Source: a virus
Taxonomy: Duplodnaviria > Caudoviricetes
Strand: one strand, 5' to 3'
IMG/VR virus record: IMGVR_UViG_3300031965_000034
Location: 1 to 57,819 of that record
DNA length: 57,819 nucleotides
Shown: positions 3,490-14,455 of the stretch, one piece after another
How the letters are laid out: each line of letters opens with the position of its first letter
Numbering within the stretch: position 1 is the first letter of the stretch
The notes under the pieces: model-generated
Seen by the model: the letters and a program-made list of their open reading frames with translations, nothing else
Database searches by the model: none
Told to the model about the DNA's origin: nothing
Made by a program: the position numbers and the translations under genes

Positions 3490-4313
3490 GCTGCTACCTC
3501 CTGACCGACCTTCGCTCGGAGCGCCTGCACCTCGGCGACGAGCGCGATCTTGAGCGGCGCCGGGATGAGGGTCTCGCGGTAGGCGCGGATCGCGACGGCA
3601 CGTTGGGCCGGGTCCGGGATGCGGCGGGCGATGTGCTCGCAGCGGGCCACGATCTCGCGGTTGCGTCGGCGCATCTGCTGGCGAGCCGGGGAGTCGCGCC
3701 GGGTGTCTGGGTGGGTGCAGAGCGAGCCCTCGCGGCCGAGGCGGTTGTACGTCATGAAGTCCGACACCGCGACCGGCCGGACGTTCCGCATGACCCGGAG
3801 CGTGAGCGAGTCCTGGCCCAGCCTCTCGGCCGGGTTGTGGGCCCCGATCTCCGTGTAGCGCGACGTCCGGTAGATGCCGACCTCGTATGCCTTGCGCTGG
3901 CCGCGGGCGAAGTCTCCGGGGACCGGCGTCCCATGACAGCGGAGGTGGCCGGGGTCGCCGGGGCAGTAGGCGTCGTTGTGGTAGCGGACCCCGCCCGAGG
4001 CCACGTCCTTGCCGTACGCGAGGAGGCGCTCGATGTGGTCGGGGTCGATCCAGTCATCCGCGGCCACGGGCGCGTACCAGGCGTGGGGGCTGGCCCAGAT
4101 CGCCACGTCCTGCGCGAAGTACGCGCCTCGGTTGACGGGGTAGCTGTGGACGATGAGTCGGTCGTCGCGGATCCCCGAGAGGGGCGGCTCATCGCCGTCG
4201 CCGATGACGACGCACACGAGGTCGCGGTAGGTCTGGGCGAGGACGCTCTCGACCGCACGCCGGACGTACTCGCGGGTCGGGGCGTAGTGGGTGACGCTGA
4301 CGAGGACGGTCAT
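3486..4313 (-). CDS. GT2 family glycosyltransferase
   Basis: YVRRAVESVLAQTYRDL, NRGAYFAQD, AADDW motifs. Confidence 0.9.
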   Translation of the reverse strand: MTVLVSVTHYAPTREYVRRAVESVLAQTYRDLVCVVIGDGDEPPLSGIRDDRLIVHSYPVNRGAYFAQDVAIWASPHAWYAPVAADDWIDPDHIERLLAYGKDVASGGVRYHNDAYCPGDPGHLRCHGTPVPGDFARGQRKAYEVGIYRTSRYTEIGAHNPAERLGQDSLTLRVMRNVRPVAVSDFMTYNRLGREGSLCTHPDTRRDSPARQQMRRRNREIVARCEHIARRIPDPAQRAVAIRAYRETLIPAPLKIALVAEVQALRAKVGQEVAA

Positions 4314-5350: not shown

Positions 5351-6639
5351 TCGATCTCCCCGCTGTACGTCGCCGGCGTGATCGTGCCGCTGTAGGCGTC
5401 ACCGAGGACGGCACCGCTCATGCGCCCGGGCGGGAGCGTGGCTCGCAGGTGCTCGATGCGGACCACCTCGCCGCCTGCCCGGCGTCCGAGGATCGTGGCG
5501 AGAACGACGGCGGGCAAGCCGGGACCCGTCACGTCTCGGATGAACGTCGCCGACCCTCCGCCCGTGGCGGTGAGCACGCCACTGCGGGCCGTCGAGGTGA
5601 GCGACGTCAGCACGCCGCCCCCGGACATCAGCGCAGCGCCGTAGCGGGCCGATTCCACGGACAGCGTGGCCACGCCGCCGCCCGTGGCCGTCAGGGCGAA
5701 GCGCCGGTCGGCCATGACTGCGAGGGTCAGGACGCCGCCGCCAGTTGCGACGAGCGCGCCGGAATGGCTCTCGGCCGAGCCCCCGTTGAACGTCGCGACA
5801 CCGCTGCCGGTGCCGGTGAGGGTGCCGGCCCGCGCGGTCGTCTCCGCCACGGCGAACACACCGCCTCCGGCCCCGGTAAGGGTCGCGGCGCGGTCCGTGG
5901 ATCCGGAGAGGGTCGCGGCCCCGGCGCCGGTCCCGGTGAGCGCAGACGATCGCTCAGAGGTGGGCGCGAACGTCCCCACGCCGCCGCCGGTCGCCACAAG
6001 GGCGGTCGGGCGGTCGGTCGTCGTGCCGAGTACCGCCACGCCGCCGGCCGTGGCGACGAGCGCACCCGAATGGGCTTCACTACCCGAGCCCGTCTCGTAT
6101 GTGAAGGTGGCAACGCCGCCGCCCGTGCCGACGAGAACCGCGTTCCGTTGGCTATCGGCTGGGGAGGTGAACAGGCCCGCGCCCGTCCCGACGAGCGGAC
6201 TCGTCGCGCCCTTCCTGGCACTGGTGGTCAGGACCCCGCCACCCGTGCCCGAGAGCGTCCCACTATGGAGCTCCGGTCCGGCGGAGACCTCGACGGTCTG
6301 TGTCGCCGAGAACACGGTGTAGCTGCCGCCGGTCGCCGGCGCACCGGCCATGCGGACCGTGTAGGAGCCGGACGTATCGCAGGTGACGGTGATGCTCTGC
6401 TGGGCCTGTGAGTTGCTGTTCGTGACCGGGTTCGTGTCCGCCGTGATGAGGCCCGTGCCCGAGGCTCCGATCGTCACATATCCGCCGCCGTCGTCGACCT
6501 CCCATTTGAAGTCGTACCGGGTGACCCCGCCAGACCCACTGAACGCAGGCGTGCCCGAGAAGGCGAACGTATCGGTGACGTCCGCCGTTACGGGCGCTGC
6601 TGGCGCGTCCAGCGAGATGCTGTCGAGGACCTTGGCCAT
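5347..6639 (-). CDS. Gly/Thr/Ala-rich repeat virion protein (possible head or neck fibre)
   Basis: Ig-like N-terminal part, then repeated SG(A/T)L(V/T)(A/G)TGGGV units; lies among neck genes. Confidence 0.6.
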   Translation of the reverse strand: MAKVLDSISLDAPAAPVTADVTDTFAFSGTPAFSGSGGVTRYDFKWEVDDGGGYVTIGASGTGLITADTNPVTNSNSQAQQSITVTCDTSGSYTVRMAGAPATGGSYTVFSATQTVEVSAGPELHSGTLSGTGGGVLTTSARKGATSPLVGTGAGLFTSPADSQRNAVLVGTGGGVATFTYETGSGSEAHSGALVATAGGVAVLGTTTDRPTALVATGGGVGTFAPTSERSSALTGTGAGAATLSGSTDRAATLTGAGGGVFAVAETTARAGTLTGTGSGVATFNGGSAESHSGALVATGGGVLTLAVMADRRFALTATGGGVATLSVESARYGAALMSGGGVLTSLTSTARSGVLTATGGGSATFIRDVTGPGLPAVVLATILGRRAGGEVVRIEHLRATLPPGRMSGAVLGDAYSGTITPATYSGEIE

Positions 6640-7846: not shown

Positions 7847-9349
7847 TTAGATGCCGGTTGTCACGACGCCGATGGTCAGCACGCGGAACGCGCTGTCGAC
7901 GAGGACGACGGAGCTGTTTCGCCAGTAGGCGAACAGGCCGCGCTCACCGGTCGGGTTGCCGTCACCGTTGACCATGTGCGGGATCAACTCGACGGTGAGG
8001 CCGATCTTGTTCACGATCAGGAACTGGTTGAAGTCCCCGAAGATCGCGACCCGGCCTGCCGCGGTCGTGAAGTCCGACTCCATCGCTGAGCTGTTGTGGC
8101 GGGGGTAGCCGAGCAGCCCCAGGGGCTCGCCGGCCGCGAGGGGCCGGTAGTCCGACGACACGCCTGCGGCGTGATCGAGGCGCTCGGATTCGGTGTAGAC
8201 CGCGCGATGGGCCAGCCACCGTGCACGCGGCTCCCAGCGGTCGCCCAGGCGGGTCGTCAGGACCCGCAGGTCGCCCGTGTCGAAGCCGTCACCGGTCGTC
8301 CCGACGTTGTACGCGGCGGCGATGCCGTAGAGGACACCCTCCGGCTCGTTGGAGCCGGTGCCGTTGACGAACTTCTCGGCCTCGAGGGTGTCCTTGGCGT
8401 CCTGGAGCAGGCGCGCCATCTCGCCCTGGAGCCGCGGCCAGTCGCCGTCGGACTCGATGCTGAACTTGATGAGCGCCTTTGCCTTACGGACGGTCACCTC
8501 AGGCTGGCCGAACGACGGGGCCCCGTCCGTGACGGCCACGGCCTCAGTGCCGTACGAGGCGGTCACGCCGGAGGTCGTGACGCCCTTCCACGTGTTGCCG
8601 ACGTTGAGCTGCTCGACGCGGGCAATTGTGGGCAGCGGGTTGACCGAGCCGTCCGAGGTCAGGATGACCGTCGGGTCGAGCTGGAACGGGACGTTGTACC
8701 CGCCGGTCGTCGTGGTGCCGACGGTGGCGATTGCCGCGCGCTCCCGCTCGGTCAGATGCTCGGGACCGAACGCCAGCACCTTGGCGAATGCCCGGTGGTA
8801 GTCGGGCGAGCCCGTCGCCATCATGTGGCGGGCAAGGACCGACGGGTCGAAGCCGTTCTCGATCTGTCGATCGGGCACGGGCAACGCGAGCAACTTGTGG
8901 ATCCGCGCCACCGACCGCTCCGGCGTCGCCGCTTCGTGGGGGTAGAACGCCTGCTCGGCGATCTTCTTTGCGCCGTCCACCATGAGCGAGCGCATCGCGG
9001 TCTCGCTCGATGTCCGTCCGCGGTACTCGGGGATGTCGAACAGATTGTCGGGGAGCTTGGTCACCGCACGAGGGCCGCGCGAGGCGAGGTCGATGCCAGA
9101 GCGCTCGACGTGCCGCTCGTCACCGGCAAGGACCAGGAGGCGCGCCTGCCGGGCCTCGAATTCCTTCTTGCGTTCCACGGCCCTCTTGCTGAGGTCACCG
9201 AGGTCAGCGAACTCCTCCTGAGCCGGTTCATCGAACTGGCGACCGGTGTACTCGCCCTCGAGTTCGTTGGAACGGGCCTTGACCCGCTCAATGAATCCTT
9301 GGACATCCTCGGGCGTCTTGGTCGCCTCGAGGTCGTTGAGAGTCAGCAT
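7847..9349 (-). CDS. Major capsid protein, HK97 fold, with N-terminal scaffold (delta) domain
   Basis: GGYNVPFQLD, FVNGTGSNEPEG, LLGYP, IFGDF motifs. Confidence 0.95.
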   Translation of the reverse strand: MLTLNDLEATKTPEDVQGFIERVKARSNELEGEYTGRQFDEPAQEEFADLGDLSKRAVERKKEFEARQARLLVLAGDERHVERSGIDLASRGPRAVTKLPDNLFDIPEYRGRTSSETAMRSLMVDGAKKIAEQAFYPHEAATPERSVARIHKLLALPVPDRQIENGFDPSVLARHMMATGSPDYHRAFAKVLAFGPEHLTERERAAIATVGTTTTGGYNVPFQLDPTVILTSDGSVNPLPTIARVEQLNVGNTWKGVTTSGVTASYGTEAVAVTDGAPSFGQPEVTVRKAKALIKFSIESDGDWPRLQGEMARLLQDAKDTLEAEKFVNGTGSNEPEGVLYGIAAAYNVGTTGDGFDTGDLRVLTTRLGDRWEPRARWLAHRAVYTESERLDHAAGVSSDYRPLAAGEPLGLLGYPRHNSSAMESDFTTAAGRVAIFGDFNQFLIVNKIGLTVELIPHMVNGDGNPTGERGLFAYWRNSSVVLVDSAFRVLTIGVVTTGI

Positions 9350-10524
9350 CAGTGGGTAATCTCCTGGAGGTAGGCGGACCAGTCCGCAGAGGACCGGAAC
9401 CGTTTGGCTTGTGCCGGGGCAACCGGCAGGACGGAGGCGACCGGGGCAGGCGGCTCGACCGTCGCGGCGGGCGCAGGCTCCGGTAGCGGGTCGTCCGCCG
9501 TCAGGAGCGCGGAGATCGCGTCGCGGATGGACCGCAGTGACGCTTCGACAGGTTCGGAGAACGCGCGGCGTCCCTCCTTCGCGCGGAGAGAAGCGCGGAT
9601 GGTGGCGTGTTCCGTGAGGTGGACGAGTTCTTCCGCGGCCGTCTCAACGCGGACGCGGAACGGGAGATCGACCTCGGCGGGATCGGGTTCATCACCCTCA
9701 GCGCGCGCAGGCGCGGCGGGGCGGTTGGCGAGGCGGAGTGCGTCATCCAGGGTACCGATGCCATCGGCCAGACCGGCTGCGACGGCATCCTTCGCGAGCA
9801 GGACAGCACCCTGTCCGTAGTCGGAGCGGACCTTGGACTCGGGCACGCCCCGGCCCTTGGCGACGTCGCCCACGAACTGGGCATCGAATGAGTCGACACG
9901 CTTCTGCATCTCGGTTCGCGCGTCATCGGTGAGCGGCTCGAATTCGTTGCCGTCGGTTTTGTGATCGCCGGCGCTGATGATCGTGACCTTGACGCCCTCG
10001 GCATCGAGAGCGCGGCTGATGTCCACGTGGATGGCGTAGACGCCGATCGAGCCGACCTGACCCGATGGGGTGACGAGGATCTGATTCGCCTGACTGGCGA
10101 GCCAGTACGCGGCGGATGCGGCGGTAGTGTTGGCGACGGCGACGATACGCTTCGCCCCACGCGCGGCGCGGATCTCCTGTGCGAGTTCCGTGACCCCGGC
10201 CACGCCTCCGCCGGGCGAGTCGATGTCGAGGACGATGGCGCTGAATTGGGGATCCGCAGCCGCCTGACGGAGCATCCCGCGGATGTCTTCGACAGAGGAC
10301 CCGCCGAACAACTCTAGGAGGAATGACGACCGGTGCTCGATGACGCCGTGAATCGGGATGACCGCCACGGCTCCGCTGTTTCGGCGAGGCTCGGGGGGGC
10401 GGGTCGCGGCCACGATCGGCTCGCCGTTCTGGGCGTAGTTGATGAGTTGGCTGAGGACCGCGCGATCCAGCGCCCACGGCGCGGATGCGAGCCCGTCGAG
10501 GGTGAGGGCGGGAACGGTTCTCAA
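9349..10524 (-). CDS. Prohead protease, S49/SppA family
   Basis: LDIDSPGG, AASAAYWLASQA, GSIGV; likely TTG start 8 nt after GGAGG. Confidence 0.92.
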   Translation of the reverse strand: MRTVPALTLDGLASAPWALDRAVLSQLINYAQNGEPIVAATRPPEPRRNSGAVAVIPIHGVIEHRSSFLLELFGGSSVEDIRGMLRQAAADPQFSAIVLDIDSPGGGVAGVTELAQEIRAARGAKRIVAVANTTAASAAYWLASQANQILVTPSGQVGSIGVYAIHVDISRALDAEGVKVTIISAGDHKTDGNEFEPLTDDARTEMQKRVDSFDAQFVGDVAKGRGVPESKVRSDYGQGAVLLAKDAVAAGLADGIGTLDDALRLANRPAAPARAEGDEPDPAEVDLPFRVRVETAAEELVHLTEHATIRASLRAKEGRRAFSEPVEASLRSIRDAISALLTADDPLPEPAPAATVEPPAPVASVLPVAPAQAKRFRSSADWSAYLQEITH

Positions 10525-10529
10525 GAGTG

Positions 10530-10581
10530 CGGCCTCCAACTACCGCGCTCTGTGCGGACGATTCCGCGCGGGTGGAGGCCG
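10530..10581 (-). promoter_or_regulatory. Stem occluding the protease SD
   Basis: 10530-10538 pairs with 10573-10581; inner helix 10543-10548/10566-10571. Confidence 0.6.
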
Positions 10582-10639
10582 ACTGTTGGCCCGGCTCGGA
10601 CGATGACGTACTGGCCGGGTAGATATTCAGTTGTCGGGA

Positions 10640-12298
10640 TTATGCGGCCTCGATGACCGCCTTGCAATGACTATTCGTGCACGTGAATCGGTACGGCGGC
10701 GACGCCTGCTCGGCGAGCAACTTCCCGCACGCACAGCGTACCTCCGCTCCGATTCGAACCGCAGTGGCCTCGATGGTCATCGCCCGCTCGAACATCTGGG
10801 GGAACGCCCGCACGAGGTAGTGATCGGCGGGCAGGATCATGCCCTGCTCCACCGTCAGGCCAGAAGCGACGCCGGAGACCGGCCAGAATGTCTCGCGCGC
10901 CGCGCACTGCCAGCCGGGCGTAGGGAGCGTCGGGCGTAGGAGCGGCTCACTCATCTGGGCATACAGGACTGGACGGGCCTCAGCATCCTCGACCTGTCCG
11001 CCCTGAATCGGCTGGACCTGTACGGGCAGATAGCCAGCGTGCTCGAGAAGCCGGACATCACGTGAAGCCGTCGCGTTGACCACGGATGGAGGCTTGTACC
11101 CACCGTCCGTGAGAGTGCGAATCGCCTGCGCCTCCCTGGAGAACACGGCTGCCGCATCCTTGAGGTCCTCGGCGAGGAACGGAATGTGGCGGTCGTCGTA
11201 CCAGAGCTGCGCCCCACCAGGGACCGTGAGGATCGGCTGTAGCGAGCCCGACAGGTTCTGCCACAGCGGGCGGATCGTGCCATCGCCGAACTGGCGCTTG
11301 ATGGTGCTGTAGTTGCCGGCGTTGAGACTCGAACCCTGCATCCCCTCCGACAGCCCCACGATCACGGGATGGACCCGGCCCGCTGCGGCGATGATCGTCT
11401 CGTCCACACCCTGCACGGCCTTGAGGTCGAGCTCGCTCATCTTCGACCCGACCGGCGTCGCATCCGCACCCGCGCCGAGATAGGCGGTGCGGAAGGCATT
11501 GAGTGCTCCGGTGTGCTGCTGCTCAAAGATGTCGATCCACTCTGTAGCCTTGTCCTTCGGCAGGGTCGGCGGAAACTTGATCAGAAGATTGGGCGTTGCT
11601 GCGTTGGCGAAGAACTTCTCCTTGAACGTGGCCGCCGACGAATAGCTGCGAACGTGGCGGATGATCGGGGTCAGCCAGCTCATACCCCGGTACTGGGCGA
11701 GGGGATCGGGGATCGGGGCGAAGTGGGCGAATGTTCCGGGCAGGAACGTCTCGGGCTCGGCCGAAGACAAAGGCCCGCCGGGCTGGTAAACGAGGCCCAG
11801 CACTTCGGCATCCACGTCGTTCGGATCATTCTCGGCATCGCGGTTGCGCGTGCCCATGACGAGGTAGCACCAGTGGGGGAAGAGACGCTTGATGCGATCC
11901 TTCCGGCGTACGGCGAACCAGTTGCCAGCGAGGTCCGCATCGCCGATGACTCGTGTCAGCAGGTCGTTGGTGGTCTTCGTGGGCTCGGGCTTTTCGAGGA
12001 TCGATAGCTCAGCGGTGCCGAACAAGTCGCCCGGCTGACCTCCCCGGAGCTGTTGCCACTGGAACCGTGCCTGGTTGAACAGCATCATCCGGGCGACCAT
12101 GCAGGCGAATACGACGCCATTGGCGCGATAGGCTCCTTGCACGAGGCCCATGAAGTCCCCCCCGACCTCCTCGCGGTCAGGGTTCATCGTCATGCTGAAA
12201 GACAGACCCGCGTTGCGGAGCATCTCGACGTAATCGTCGATGGTGTAGGTCTCCGCGTGCATCGACGGTTGAGTAATGAGGGAGCGGATCAGGCTCAT
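10640..12298 (-). CDS. Portal protein (HK97-type) with C-terminal extension ending in a Com-like zinc ribbon
   Basis: VVFACM, GMSWLTP, FFANAATP motifs; C-terminal VRCACGKLLAE...FTCTNSHC. Confidence 0.93.
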   Translation of the reverse strand: MSLIRSLITQPSMHAETYTIDDYVEMLRNAGLSFSMTMNPDREEVGGDFMGLVQGAYRANGVVFACMVARMMLFNQARFQWQQLRGGQPGDLFGTAELSILEKPEPTKTTNDLLTRVIGDADLAGNWFAVRRKDRIKRLFPHWCYLVMGTRNRDAENDPNDVDAEVLGLVYQPGGPLSSAEPETFLPGTFAHFAPIPDPLAQYRGMSWLTPIIRHVRSYSSAATFKEKFFANAATPNLLIKFPPTLPKDKATEWIDIFEQQHTGALNAFRTAYLGAGADATPVGSKMSELDLKAVQGVDETIIAAAGRVHPVIVGLSEGMQGSSLNAGNYSTIKRQFGDGTIRPLWQNLSGSLQPILTVPGGAQLWYDDRHIPFLAEDLKDAAAVFSREAQAIRTLTDGGYKPPSVVNATASRDVRLLEHAGYLPVQVQPIQGGQVEDAEARPVLYAQMSEPLLRPTLPTPGWQCAARETFWPVSGVASGLTVEQGMILPADHYLVRAFPQMFERAMTIEATAVRIGAEVRCACGKLLAEQASPPYRFTCTNSHCKAVIEAA

Positions 12299-12465
12299 CG
12301 TCGCCACCTAATATCAACAGCCGACAAGATGATCGTGAGTCCGGCGAGGATGCCGGCCCAGCGCCAGTCGAAGGTCGCCACGAACACGACGACGATGGCC
12401 GCGCCGATGAGAATCACGAGCGACTCGATCTGGCGAGGCGCCAGGCGCGATCGGTTCAACATCAT
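12295..12465 (-). CDS. Small two-TM membrane protein
   Basis: Read by hand: MMLNRSRLAPRQIESLVILIGAAIVVVFVATFDWRWAGILAGLTIILSAVDIRWRR; ATGA-coupled on both sides. Confidence 0.7.
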   Translation of the reverse strand: MMLNRSRLAPRQIESLVILIGAAIVVVFVATFDWRWAGILAGLTIILSAVDIRWRR

Positions 12466-13961
12466 CGCGCGCGTCCCATGATGATGAACGGCTCCGGCTC
12501 AGGCGGCGCGGTCGCGTAGAACTTCGCCCGATCGAACGCAAGCACCGCCGCGACCGCGAGGTCGATCTTTCGCATGGAGTTCTTCGACTCCTTGACGATA
12601 CGCGGGCCATACCGGTCTTCTTTGACCACGGCGTTCGCAATGTGCTGAGTCAGGACCGCCGACCCATCGTGGGCCAGCGCCTTATCGATGACCGCGGTAT
12701 AGAACTCCTGGCACGCCGGCACCATCCGCACGCGGGAGTTGGTCGGCCACTCGACCACCGGGAAGCCCTCATTCTCGAGCCGCGCATAGAAGTCCTGGTA
12801 GCGGGCCGGATCGAACGCAAGCTCGCGCACCGTGAACGTGGCGAAGACGGAGCGGATGCGCGTCTCGATCTCCTCCATGTCCACGTGCCCACCTTCAGGT
12901 GGGTACCAGTGACCGAGCACGAACAGATACGGATGGTTGATCGTGCAACCGACAAGAGCCGTCGAGTCATTCGACCAGGCCCCATCGAAGCCGAGCACGA
13001 TCGGCTCATCAGGAGCGACCGGCCGCGGCTGCGCGCAGGCGTCCCAAGTCCCGAAGGGAAGCCATGCCTGCGAGGTCTGTGTCCACTGGTTCAGGAAGTA
13101 GCGGCGGAACACGGCCTCGGGCTTGCGTAGCTGATCCTCGAAGAACTCGGAATGAACCGTCGTGCCGAAGCTCGGATTGGCGGTCTCCCAGACGGCTGGG
13201 TCGCGATAGTCCGCATCCTGCGGCGCCTCTTGGACCCATGCGAAGTACGTCGGATCCTCGAGCGAGCCGTCCAGGATGCTCTTGGCCGTCACGTACTGGC
13301 GCCAACAGACCGTCTCCCGGTCGAAGCCGGCCGTGGTGATCTGCACGACCATCGGCTGGCGCCGTGCCCCGGTACCGTTCGTCAGGACGTTCCAGACGTT
13401 CTCGCCACGGGGCCCCGTCCACTCGTGCAGCTCGTCGCAGATGACGGCATGGATGTTCTTGCCGTCGTTCGTTCCGGCGACTGCCGCCACTCGCAGAAGC
13501 CGCGCACCCGGCACGGATGGCACGAGGATCTCGCGATCGAAGCATTCAGTGACGAGGCTCAACGTTGGCGACAGTTCGCACATCTTGCGAGCGGCGCCGA
13601 ACACGAGATCGGCCTGGTCATCGGAAGCCGCCGAGCACACGACCAGCGGACTCGGCTCGCCATCGCCGATCAGGAAGTACAGCGCGAGCGCCGCTGCGAG
13701 CTCCGTCTTGCCGTTCTTCTTCGGAACGCTGATGTAGGCCCAGCGATAACGCCGCAGCCCGGTCTCCCGGACCTCGAACATGCTCTTGATGAGATCCCGT
13801 TGCCAGGGCAACAGGACGAAGGGCTGCCCAATCCACTCGCCGTTCGTGAACCGGCAATGCTTCTCGATCCAGGCGATGACCTCGAAGCCCTTGGTTCGTC
13901 GACGCGACGTGATCTCGCCGGGCGGCGGGGTGATGATCGTGGTGGGCGGGGGAGCGATCAT
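12462..13961 (-). CDS. terL: Terminase large subunit
   Basis: VPKKNGKT Walker A, ICDELHE Walker B, ITTAG, LGFDGA and KIDLAVA nuclease motifs. Confidence 0.97.
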   Translation of the reverse strand: MIAPPPTTIITPPPGEITSRRRTKGFEVIAWIEKHCRFTNGEWIGQPFVLLPWQRDLIKSMFEVRETGLRRYRWAYISVPKKNGKTELAAALALYFLIGDGEPSPLVVCSAASDDQADLVFGAARKMCELSPTLSLVTECFDREILVPSVPGARLLRVAAVAGTNDGKNIHAVICDELHEWTGPRGENVWNVLTNGTGARRQPMVVQITTAGFDRETVCWRQYVTAKSILDGSLEDPTYFAWVQEAPQDADYRDPAVWETANPSFGTTVHSEFFEDQLRKPEAVFRRYFLNQWTQTSQAWLPFGTWDACAQPRPVAPDEPIVLGFDGAWSNDSTALVGCTINHPYLFVLGHWYPPEGGHVDMEEIETRIRSVFATFTVRELAFDPARYQDFYARLENEGFPVVEWPTNSRVRMVPACQEFYTAVIDKALAHDGSAVLTQHIANAVVKEDRYGPRIVKESKNSMRKIDLAVAAVLAFDRAKFYATAPPEPEPFIIMGRAR

Positions 13962-14455
13962 GCTGGCTCCCACTCATCATCGTCATGACCGACCGTCAGG
14001 TCATCGTCGTCGATCATCTGGTTGAGGCGAGCGGCAGTGAGCTGTACCTGCCCGAATGTCAGACCGAGGTGCAGCCGGCTCTGCGGGTCCATGCCGAACG
14101 CCCGCTCGAGCCGTGAGATCGTCGCCTCGAGCCCCGACACGTAGGACGCCAGGGGCGAGAGGACCGGCTGCCCCGTGGAGCCCTTGACCAGCCTGACCTT
14201 ACGGAGCGCAGGCAACGTCCGCTCGTACTCGTCGACCGCCTTTATCCAGCGGGTGAGTGCGTGCATGTCGCTCCGCCGATCGACCGCCCGCGCCACATCG
14301 GATTGCCAGAACTCGGTCCATAGCTTCTGCGACACCTGGAGCAGTCCGGCCGGCGCCGGGGGTGGCTCGATGCCCTGCCCGGCGATAAGCGCCAGTGACG
14401 GACGCGACCGATGACCCTGCCTGGTGAGGGCTGACTTCATGGGCGAGCCGGCCAT
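13958..14455 (-). CDS. terS: Terminase small subunit (P27-like)
   Basis: GSTGQPVLSP...FGMDPQSR; directly upstream of terL. Confidence 0.85.
   Translation of the reverse strand: MAGSPMKSALTRQGHRSRPSLALIAGQGIEPPPAPAGLLQVSQKLWTEFWQSDVARAVDRRSDMHALTRWIKAVDEYERTLPALRKVRLVKGSTGQPVLSPLASYVSGLEATISRLERAFGMDPQSRLHLGLTFGQVQLTAARLNQMIDDDDLTVGHDDDEWEPA

Follow-up and report, generated by a model that had tools for sequence, protein, structure and literature searches.

What is a zinc ribbon resembling Com, the translational activator of phage Mu, doing at the end of a portal protein, just ahead of a protease gene whose ribosome-binding site seems to be buried in a hairpin? The question is posed by the head module of IMGVR_UViG_3300031965_000034, a virus record from an uncultured soil phage, analysed here as a window of 57,819 bp (the whole stretch of DNA, 68% G+C); every feature of the window given below lies on its minus strand. 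The answer I will argue for is that the ribbon and the leader of the protease gene form one translational unit of the Com/mom type, retargeted to the head protease and, in this phage, fused to the portal. The sequence feature is real, and a switch mechanism is plausible and backed by comparison between phages; taken as a whole, the reading comes close to probable without quite reaching it.

The comparison begins with Mu, where the zinc finger of Com alone binds RNA, at a hairpin adjoining the stem that hides the start of mom (PMC6483171). In prophages of the Mu type, Com-like genes are found ahead of other genes as well (PMC3299994), and portal fusions to packaged effector domains have been described (Iyer et al. 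2017, PMC5512222).

The end of the portal is as an earlier note on this DNA, made from the sequence alone, had read it: the open reading frame (ORF) closes with ...AEVRCACGKLLAEQASPPYRFTCTNSHCKAVIEAA*, also given as ...VRCACGKLLAEQASPPYRFTCTNSHCKAVIEAA. Within this tail, V523-K549 (10661..10741) make up a Com-like zinc ribbon with four cysteines (Cys525, 527, 543, and 548, in the arrangement CxC-x15-Cx4C), delimited by cysteine invariance and by hhalign. All four cysteines are invariant across relatives, and the spacing between them varies, from CxC and Cx4C in the window to CxC and CPRC in P0004 and P0005 and CxxC and CxxC in P0006 and in locus L016. The tail is found at 63-87% identity in three portal proteins, and the copy in L016 is more divergent. 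The ribbon is thus not a small free-standing protein of about 60 amino acids but residues 523-549 of a portal of 555. It ends a C-terminal module (residues 462-555, 10643..10924) recognised from conservation and from AlphaFold2, in which a part that reads FWP...DHYLVRAFPQMFE is followed by the ribbon. The module is preceded by a predicted flexible linker (residues 427-461, 10925..11029) where the predicted local distance difference test score (pLDDT) of the AlphaFold2 model of the whole portal is about 31-35. The module itself has a pLDDT of 66-82 in that model and a mean of 77 when modelled alone, and it is kept in P0004-P0006, L016, P0031, P0032, P0051, P0087, and P0096.

How far does the likeness to Com go? 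An hhalign comparison of five tails with 16 Com proteins gave a probability of 97.3% and a score of 53.3. When the other columns of the ribbon were shuffled with the cysteines held in place (n = 120), scores averaged 12.5 and reached at most 24.7, as against 48.6 for the real ribbon part, so the likeness exceeds what four cysteines alone would produce. Relatives of the tail share the pattern R-C-x-x-C-x-K-L-L ... C-P-R-C-K. A profile of the tail found 209 proteins at E<=1e-3 among 1.84 billion; 49 of the 85 small ones match PF10122, the Pfam family Zn_ribbon_Com, at E<=0.01, whether under or over the family threshold. Of the 19 large ones, 17 are PF04860 portals that carry the ribbon at their C-terminus or close to it, and three of the 19 match PF10122 at E<=0.01. 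P0006 is identical to Com at 11 of 27 positions (BLASTP, pairwise E 3e-5), and a hidden Markov model (HMM) of Com ranked P0006, P0005, P0004, and the L016 portal as the top four of 2802 six-frame ORFs (E 0.006-0.64). Judged by these profiles, the tail is kin to the Com group and would work in the same way, with the copy in the window lying under the family threshold.

Structure has little to say on the matter. The model of the C-terminal module found nothing in the PDB at E<=0.001 with Foldseek (top match E 0.38), and the fold therefore adds no evidence. The tail profile gave only weak ribbon matches among PDB sequences (E>=0.18). A search of the PDB by sequence turned up no structure of Com, the top matches to Mu Com being weak ones to AccD N-terminal ribbons (E 0.15-0.32). 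The ESM Atlas, searched with the tail, returned only unnamed clusters, at 0.89, under the lead threshold of the Atlas. Scans with the tail alignment recovered only L016 from viral contigs and nothing from metagenome contigs, and scans with the portal alignment gave no additional close relative bearing the ribbon.

An in-frame ATG at 10838-10840, with GGAG 6 nt upstream, could yield a free protein of 66 amino acids ending in the ribbon. A nested ribbon protein made from an internal start (M490 or M510) was considered and rejected as a general arrangement, the methionines not being conserved in P0005, P0006, or L016.

From the stop codon of the portal to the start of the protease there are 115 nt (10525..10639). 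This leader contains, 8 nt before the TTG start, the Shine-Dalgarno (SD) sequence GGAGG (10533..10537), and it was the claim of the earlier note that a stem conceals it. The sequence bears this out: CGGCCUCCA (10581-10573) is the exact reverse complement of UGGAGGCCG (10538-10530), and the pairing buries the GGAGG. The masking hairpin as a whole (10530..10581), defined by the 9-bp complement and by folding, consists of a 5' arm, an inner hairpin, and a 3' arm. In the RNAfold prediction the arms form a single stem around the inner hairpin, and a separate hairpin stands at about 10619-10590. The latter (CCCGGCC...GGCCGGG, 10590..10619) lies just 5' of the masking stem in both the minimum free energy and the centroid structures. 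No Rfam family matches the region 10350-10800 at E<=1.

The fold is more stable than its composition would predict. For a region of 161 nt the folding z is -3.44, with none of 200 shuffles as stable; for the core of 86 nt it is -2.21, with 7 of 200 as stable. The pairing probability of the protease SD is 1.0, the highest among 51 putative starts in the window. A strict stem test, applied to all of the compared loci, called for a perfect 9-bp stem over the SD, in which a single G-U pair was tolerated and the loop could not exceed 50 nt. It was passed by 8 of 479 genes with a strong SD, and five of the eight are prohead proteases (those of the window, L047, L049, L077, and L096). In the window and L016 the coding sequence of a Com-like ribbon comes shortly before a gene with a stem-locked start, and the same is true of L077 and L096, where the ribbon is a free ORF.

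The more telling evidence comes from other phages. The survey took in every compared locus with an S49 protease, after merging of duplicates (L049 is the L040 contig, L045 the L041 contig, and L044 the L043/L052 record). A compact hairpin at the SD is present in all eight distinct phages with a ribbon portal and an S49 protease: the window, L016, L049, L045, L044, L047, L048, and L053. Across these leaders the SD lies in the 3' arm of the hairpin, 5-9 nt before a start that may be TTG, GTG, or ATG. Where the portal has no ribbon, the start of the S49 protease overlaps or abuts the portal stop, leaving no leader, in 13 of 17 cases (L006, L007, L015, L017, L018, L019, L027, L046, L051, L054, L057, L060, and L061). 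The remaining four are L008, L055, and L056, discussed below, and L024, which was not examined.

The earlier note had expected the stem to be conserved in relatives and had asked for a check of covariation. Nine other leaders have a stem equivalent to that of the window. In ten leaders anchored at the SD, each of the five positions of the SD core is paired upstream in nine or ten, and in the flanks of the stem one finds 3-5 types of canonical pair and 2-4 changes on both sides. Because of these compensatory changes and the pairing of the SD core, I regard the leader stem, as an interpretation of aligned sequences, as one that is kept by selection. In two leaders, those of L041 (oriented 5430-5575) and L044 (oriented 950-1093), the anti-SD word GUGGCCUCC occurs twice; judging by the sequence, alternative pairings may form with the single SD.

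On a tree of the portal core, ribbon portals fall into two distant clades, interspersed with portals lacking the ribbon, with at least five changes of state, and a single ribbon clade is rejected (p-AU, from the approximately unbiased test, 1.6e-5). Com-like ribbons are therefore, as far as this tree of sequences goes, found on portals of at least two distant lineages. Proteases that bear leaders do not form one clade either (p-AU 0.02, four changes). All four of the independent pairs on well-supported branches of the portal-core tree agree in joining the ribbon with a masked leader. A crude masking index over 56 distinct protease leaders has a median of 0.765 in those associated with a ribbon (n = 12) and 0.57 in the rest (n = 44), a difference with a Mann-Whitney p of 9.3e-5, uncorrected for kinship. 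The type of ribbon goes with the type of stem: PPYRFTC ribbons occur with GGCCUCC/GGAGGCC, and ribbons of the L016/L048 type with GGACCU.GAGCC/GGCU.GGAGGUCC. Between the window and L016, whose portals are sisters, the unit exchanged is the ribbon plus the leader, with break points within the portal gene and at the start of the protease.

Among ribbon portals the motif EVRC..C..LLAE.ATPPYRFTC.RCK is strikingly constant. A degenerate DNA pattern made from it found 11 viral loci, and all eight of the ribbon ORFs scanned are portals. Neither the fused ribbon nor the ORF of L077 has a match at E<=0.01 among 50,697 phage records (tblastn). Some portals (P0054, P0087, P0118, P0076, and P0069, and those of L034, L037, L038, and L042) run on for 50-300 amino acids past the ribbon; the extension of P0087 has APQVTVNVPERT-like repeats, and several of the extended portals end in a D..GRI.G.. 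motif. In such proteins the ribbon may also be a hinge before further cargo. In L036 (2999-3604) an HNH endonuclease lies 104 nt past the ribbon portal, and its own N-terminus is another Com-like ribbon (MDLVECRCPRCQKL...).

The ribbon need not be attached to the portal. L077 and L096 have portals without a ribbon and proteases of the S78 (HK97) type, and the portal-protease gap of 254-265 nt accommodates a small Com-like ORF, with 71 nt between the stop of this ORF and a TTG start whose SD is masked by a strong stem. In L104, L106, and L117, where G+C is 0.42-0.43, a Com-like ORF of 44-50 amino acids lies 70-71 nt before an S78 protease, with a weaker stem that includes the start codon. The distance from the Com-like stop to the S78 start is thus 70-71 nt in all five loci, over a G+C range of 0.42-0.67. 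ORFs of L077, L104, L111, and L114 match PHROG 6417, annotated 'translational regulator', and the S78 assignments were confirmed. The L104-type ORF also matches 14 Arthrobacter phage records in a tblastn search of the same 50,697 phage records.

The neighbouring genes make up the rest of the head module. Upstream is the terminase (12462-13973). The portal gene (10640..12307) encodes 555 amino acids from a GTG start to a TAA stop at 10642-10640, and it belongs with the HK97-type portals: PF04860 covers residues 99-390 (E 7.7e-24, 84.9 bits against a cut-off of 39.1), the gene sits between terminase and protease, and annotated actinophage portals match it at 41-45% identity (tblastn). The protease gene (9349..10524), between portal and capsid, is an S49 prohead protease with a C-terminal extension (Peptidase_S49, PF01343, E 1.5e-36, 126.1 bits against a cut-off of 24.9), of the same family as lambda gpC, which I take to be an S49 peptidase. 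Its TTG start (10524-10522) is backed by the homologous protease of L016, which opens with LLRTIPALTLDG at its own TTG. The major capsid gene (7847..9349, PF05065, E 4.6e-24) overlaps the protease stop at TGATG (9351-9347), as it does in L016, and this overlap is what had been proposed to couple capsid to protease. Since an AGGAG belonging to the capsid gene itself lies 11 nt upstream of it, the dependence of that gene on translation of the protease would be only partial at best.

How might ribbon and leader work together? The last 30 or so residues of the portal would form a Com-like four-cysteine ribbon at the end of a small folded module, held on a flexible linker of about 35 residues. The G+C-rich stem would lock the GGAGG that precedes the weak TTG by 8 nt, blocking the binding of the 30S subunit, and because the portal stop lies 58 nt upstream of the stem, ribosomes terminating there could not melt it. 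On binding the leader RNA, the ribbon would shift the stem and most likely open it in the manner of Com. Translation of the protease, and possibly of the overlapping capsid gene too, would then depend on the protein that bears the ribbon, presumably, in this phage, portal not yet enclosed in a procapsid. That RNA is bound, which way the control runs, and that free portal comes into it are matters that I infer from the analysis as a whole.

The proposal resembles Com and mom of Mu in that a four-cysteine zinc ribbon is encoded immediately upstream of a gene with a hairpin-locked SD, and in that the locking stem has another small hairpin immediately 5' of it, the place where Com binds in Mu (PMC6483171). 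It differs in that the ribbon ends a structural protein of 555 amino acids, whereas Com is a free protein of 62 whose tail is disordered. The proposed target, too, is another: a prohead protease whose stop is overlapped by the capsid gene, whereas mom is a DNA-modification gene. The Com-like gene of FluMu (HI1522.1, before hin1523) shows that a regulator of this type may have another target, with putative Com sites at the 5' end of that target (PMC3299994). Cases of the FluMu type are free-standing, are found in Mu-like prophages of Proteobacteria, have DNA methyltransferases as targets, and have no link to head assembly (PMC3299994). The free Com-like ORFs of L077, L096, L104, L106, and L117 are closer to the window in their position between portal and protease and in having a start that is masked or partly masked; L077 and L096 share the TTG start as well. 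They differ in that the ribbon is unfused, the S78 protease is unrelated, and the leader is of 70-71 rather than 115 nt.

There are also parallels for control by a structural protein. P22 scaffolding protein regulates its own synthesis, and the zinc ribbon of AccD binds the accA and accD mRNAs. In both, an unassembled pool of a structural or enzymatic protein adjusts translation, and the ribbon of AccD is a fused one. Both differ from the present proposal in acting by repression rather than activation and in involving no portal, and P22 scaffold has no sequence relationship to the ribbon. Outside Mu Com/mom, no zinc-ribbon protein characterised so far is known to turn on translation by opening the stem that covers a start. 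A literature search, mostly at the level of abstracts and confined to main articles, found no published description of a Com-like ribbon on a portal or of a Com-like gene before a prohead protease.

Several observations weigh against the reading of ribbon and leader as a unit, and I take them up beginning with those that concern its generality. Com-like ORFs also precede genes that are not proteases: a PD-(D/E)XK nuclease in L111, a gene of unknown function in L114, and, in Arthrobacter phage Ottawa, a nuclease. Ribbon portals of the L034/L036 type have been tied to no masked leader. The four independent pairs yield a sign test of p = 0.125, and four pairs cannot reach significance. Among loci without a ribbon, L008 has a gap of 76 nt with no clear masking stem. 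In this locus (3700-3910) an HTH-like (helix-turn-helix) tail (..LLNVSPSTIKRRRSAD) replaces the ribbon and the gap holds two direct copies of CCCGTCCTGACCCCT; this tail may belong to another kind that binds nucleic acids and may have sites of its own. Finally, a search by eye for the Com motif CC(N)2-3GAG in the leaders gave short, unconvincing matches, none of them in a convincing hairpin loop.

A second group of observations concerns the copy in the window itself, and bears on whether there is anything to explain. The tail could be a generic zinc knuckle on a variable portal end, and the hairpin no more than a G+C-rich intergenic region folding as its composition dictates. For the window ribbon, nothing matches in Pfam or NCBIfam at E<=10 or in PHROG at E<=0.01. 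Searching the window and the L016 record with PF10122 itself also came back empty, and the window tail is absent from the matches of the Com HMM among the 2802 six-frame ORFs. Its similarity to Mu Com is insignificant by BLASTP (E 6.1). Its spacing of CxC and Cx4C departs from the CxxC...CxxC that the earlier note gives for Com. The curated threshold of PF10122 (22.9 bits) is reached by no portal-fused case, the top one being L034 (22.1 bits, E 1e-4). The claim of a Com-like portal tail consequently stands at the level of profiles, where hhalign and the control with fixed cysteines agree, and does not stand by any Pfam or NCBIfam threshold. As to the hairpin, a paired SD is common at 68% G+C (8 of the 51 putative starts have SD pairing of >=0.93), and the folding z of whole leaders is unremarkable in L016 (-1.37) and L040 (-0.41). 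Chance is nonetheless very improbable as the full explanation: the four cysteines and the motif that flanks them are conserved across many portals, compensatory changes run through ten leaders, the strict test admits only 8 of 479 genes, and no shuffle in 200 folds as well as the 161-nt region.

A harder question is whether two real elements have anything to do with one another. Ribbon and hairpin may be unrelated in function and merely co-inherited, as one mosaic block that phages exchange whole. The ribbon would then be a clamp for nucleic acid in the head interior, an assembly contact, or an adaptor for cargo packaged in the head, and the hairpin would be self-contained, limiting translation from a weak TTG or stabilising the protease-capsid mRNA. 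One thing that lends weight to this is distance. The earlier note placed the ribbon directly upstream of the masking stem, which is so in the window, with its gap of 115 nt. The description is not general, because in six distinct ribbon-portal loci it does not hold: 1.4-4.4 kb separate the two in L045, L047, L048, L049, and L053, and in the sixth case they lie in separate loci, L052 and L044, of one record. A cassette in the second clade parts ribbon from leader in five ribbon-portal loci; in L040 (3625-8051, the L049 contig) it starts with a collagen-repeat ORF overlapping the portal stop by 4 nt and continues with glycosyltransferase genes.

L047 and L048 are instructive here. Their portals are sisters, and the two loci have neither the type of ribbon nor the type of stem in common, which would look like co-evolution. 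The difference comes down to one swapped block, bounded by the end of the portal core on one side and by a point 16 nt short of the protease start on the other; within it are the ribbon, the intervening genes, and the leader. A joint switch of ribbon type and stem type can therefore be one recombination event rather than co-evolution, and ribbon and leader can travel together without working together. L055 and L056 make the converse point: no ribbon occurs anywhere in a locus of 10-16 kb, and 1.07 kb separate portal from protease, and yet a distant pyrimidine tract pairs with the protease SD (0.81). The conservation of the ribbon motif far exceeds that of the leaders, which fits a constant partner better than variable RNAs. 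The portals that continue beyond their ribbon point the same way, together with the fusions of portals to packaged effectors (PMC5512222). Those fusions are like ribbon portals in carrying extra domains C-terminal to the portal domain and differ in what those domains are, enzymatic effectors that are believed to enter the host by injection; the terms 'zinc ribbon', 'Zn-ribbon', 'ZnR', and 'Com' are absent from the main text of that paper.

Other facts sit badly with mere co-inheritance. Free Com-like ORFs, beside portals with no ribbon, occupy the same place, 70-71 nt before masked S78 starts. The window and L016 exchange just the ribbon and the leader, at break points that do not coincide with a gene border. 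The one characterised member of the family is an RNA-binding activator of translation (PMC6483171). Co-inheritance without a joint function is, on this evidence, a serious possibility that I consider somewhat doubtful.

The leader may have yet another role. A promoter-like site, TTGCAA-17 nt-CATAAT (10667-10639), lies across the portal stop, one being found where shuffles gave 0.1 expected, and because of it the gap may also be a transcript leader, a point, drawn from a consensus match, to be added to those against a purely translational unit. In the strong form of this alternative the gap is an internal promoter plus the 5' untranslated region of a protease-capsid transcript, and the ribbon, if it acts there at all, binds promoter DNA. 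TTGAC(A/G) followed by TAnnnT-like hexamers can be seen in other leaders, and NCBI names the family 'Com family DNA-binding transcriptional regulator'. Early in the leader, a motif CAAC.GAA.A comes just after the TAnnnT-like hexamer in the window (10615-10627), in L016 (3594-3606), and in the leaders of L048, L053, and L096, where it overlaps the stop of the Com-like ORF.

The gap is also better conserved than the coding DNA that flanks it. DNA contigs from four other metagenome runs, aligned to the region, show few differences in the leader (at 10552, 10561, and 10634, and a deletion of 1 nt at 10617), and two substitutions within the hairpin region fall at unpaired positions of the predicted fold. 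The N-terminal coding DNA of the protease differs by about 18%; one X3 contig has 39 differences in 10331-10540, and another contig has only two in 10511-10607. Over 10331-10696 the leader plus the last 50 nt or so of the portal gene differ by about 2-4%, and the portal DNA upstream by about 10%. The low divergence of the leader could reflect constraint upon it or a recombination boundary near 10510.

Against a promoter as the explanation, the distance between the hexamers varies from leader to leader (17, 19, and 18 nt in three of them and 8 nt in L040, L041, L048, and L053), the TTGACA of L077 and L096 lies within the Com-like ORF, where it encodes LDKG, and a match to a consensus is not by itself evidence of function. 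I judge it improbable that transcription accounts for the arrangement.

If the ribbon and leader are indeed one translational unit, what does it mean that the ribbon is carried by the portal? The C-terminus of a portal faces the interior of the capsid, so an assembled portal could not reach the mRNA, and only unassembled portal could act upon it. This difficulty for the unit also opens a more specific version of it, in which the portal is itself the translational activator of the protease-capsid operon and the ribbon on free portal opens the masked start. Closure of the procapsid would shut the ribbon inside and end the signal, so that synthesis of protease and shell would be metered against free portal vertices. 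Phages without the ribbon would achieve the same coupling in cis, through the overlap of portal stop and protease start. Ribbon plus leader would be a trans-acting replacement for translational coupling, one that can be swapped between phages and may be free or fused. This version is possible but, with all that it assumes, rather unlikely.

The consequences differ according to which of these accounts proves correct. If ribbon and hairpin are only co-inherited, Com-like ribbons would still be a recurrent appendage of portals for which I found no published description, and masked starts would still be a hallmark of prohead protease genes that are uncoupled from the portal gene. If ribbon and leader do form a unit, then the Com/mom device, usually treated as a curiosity, would be widespread in uncultured phages of soil and other habitats, with the head protease and perhaps the capsid under its control in place of a DNA-modification gene. 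The unit would also explain the common unannotated small ORF between portal and protease genes. In one form the device would be built into the portal, so that in head assembly a structural protein would act back directly on how its partners are translated.

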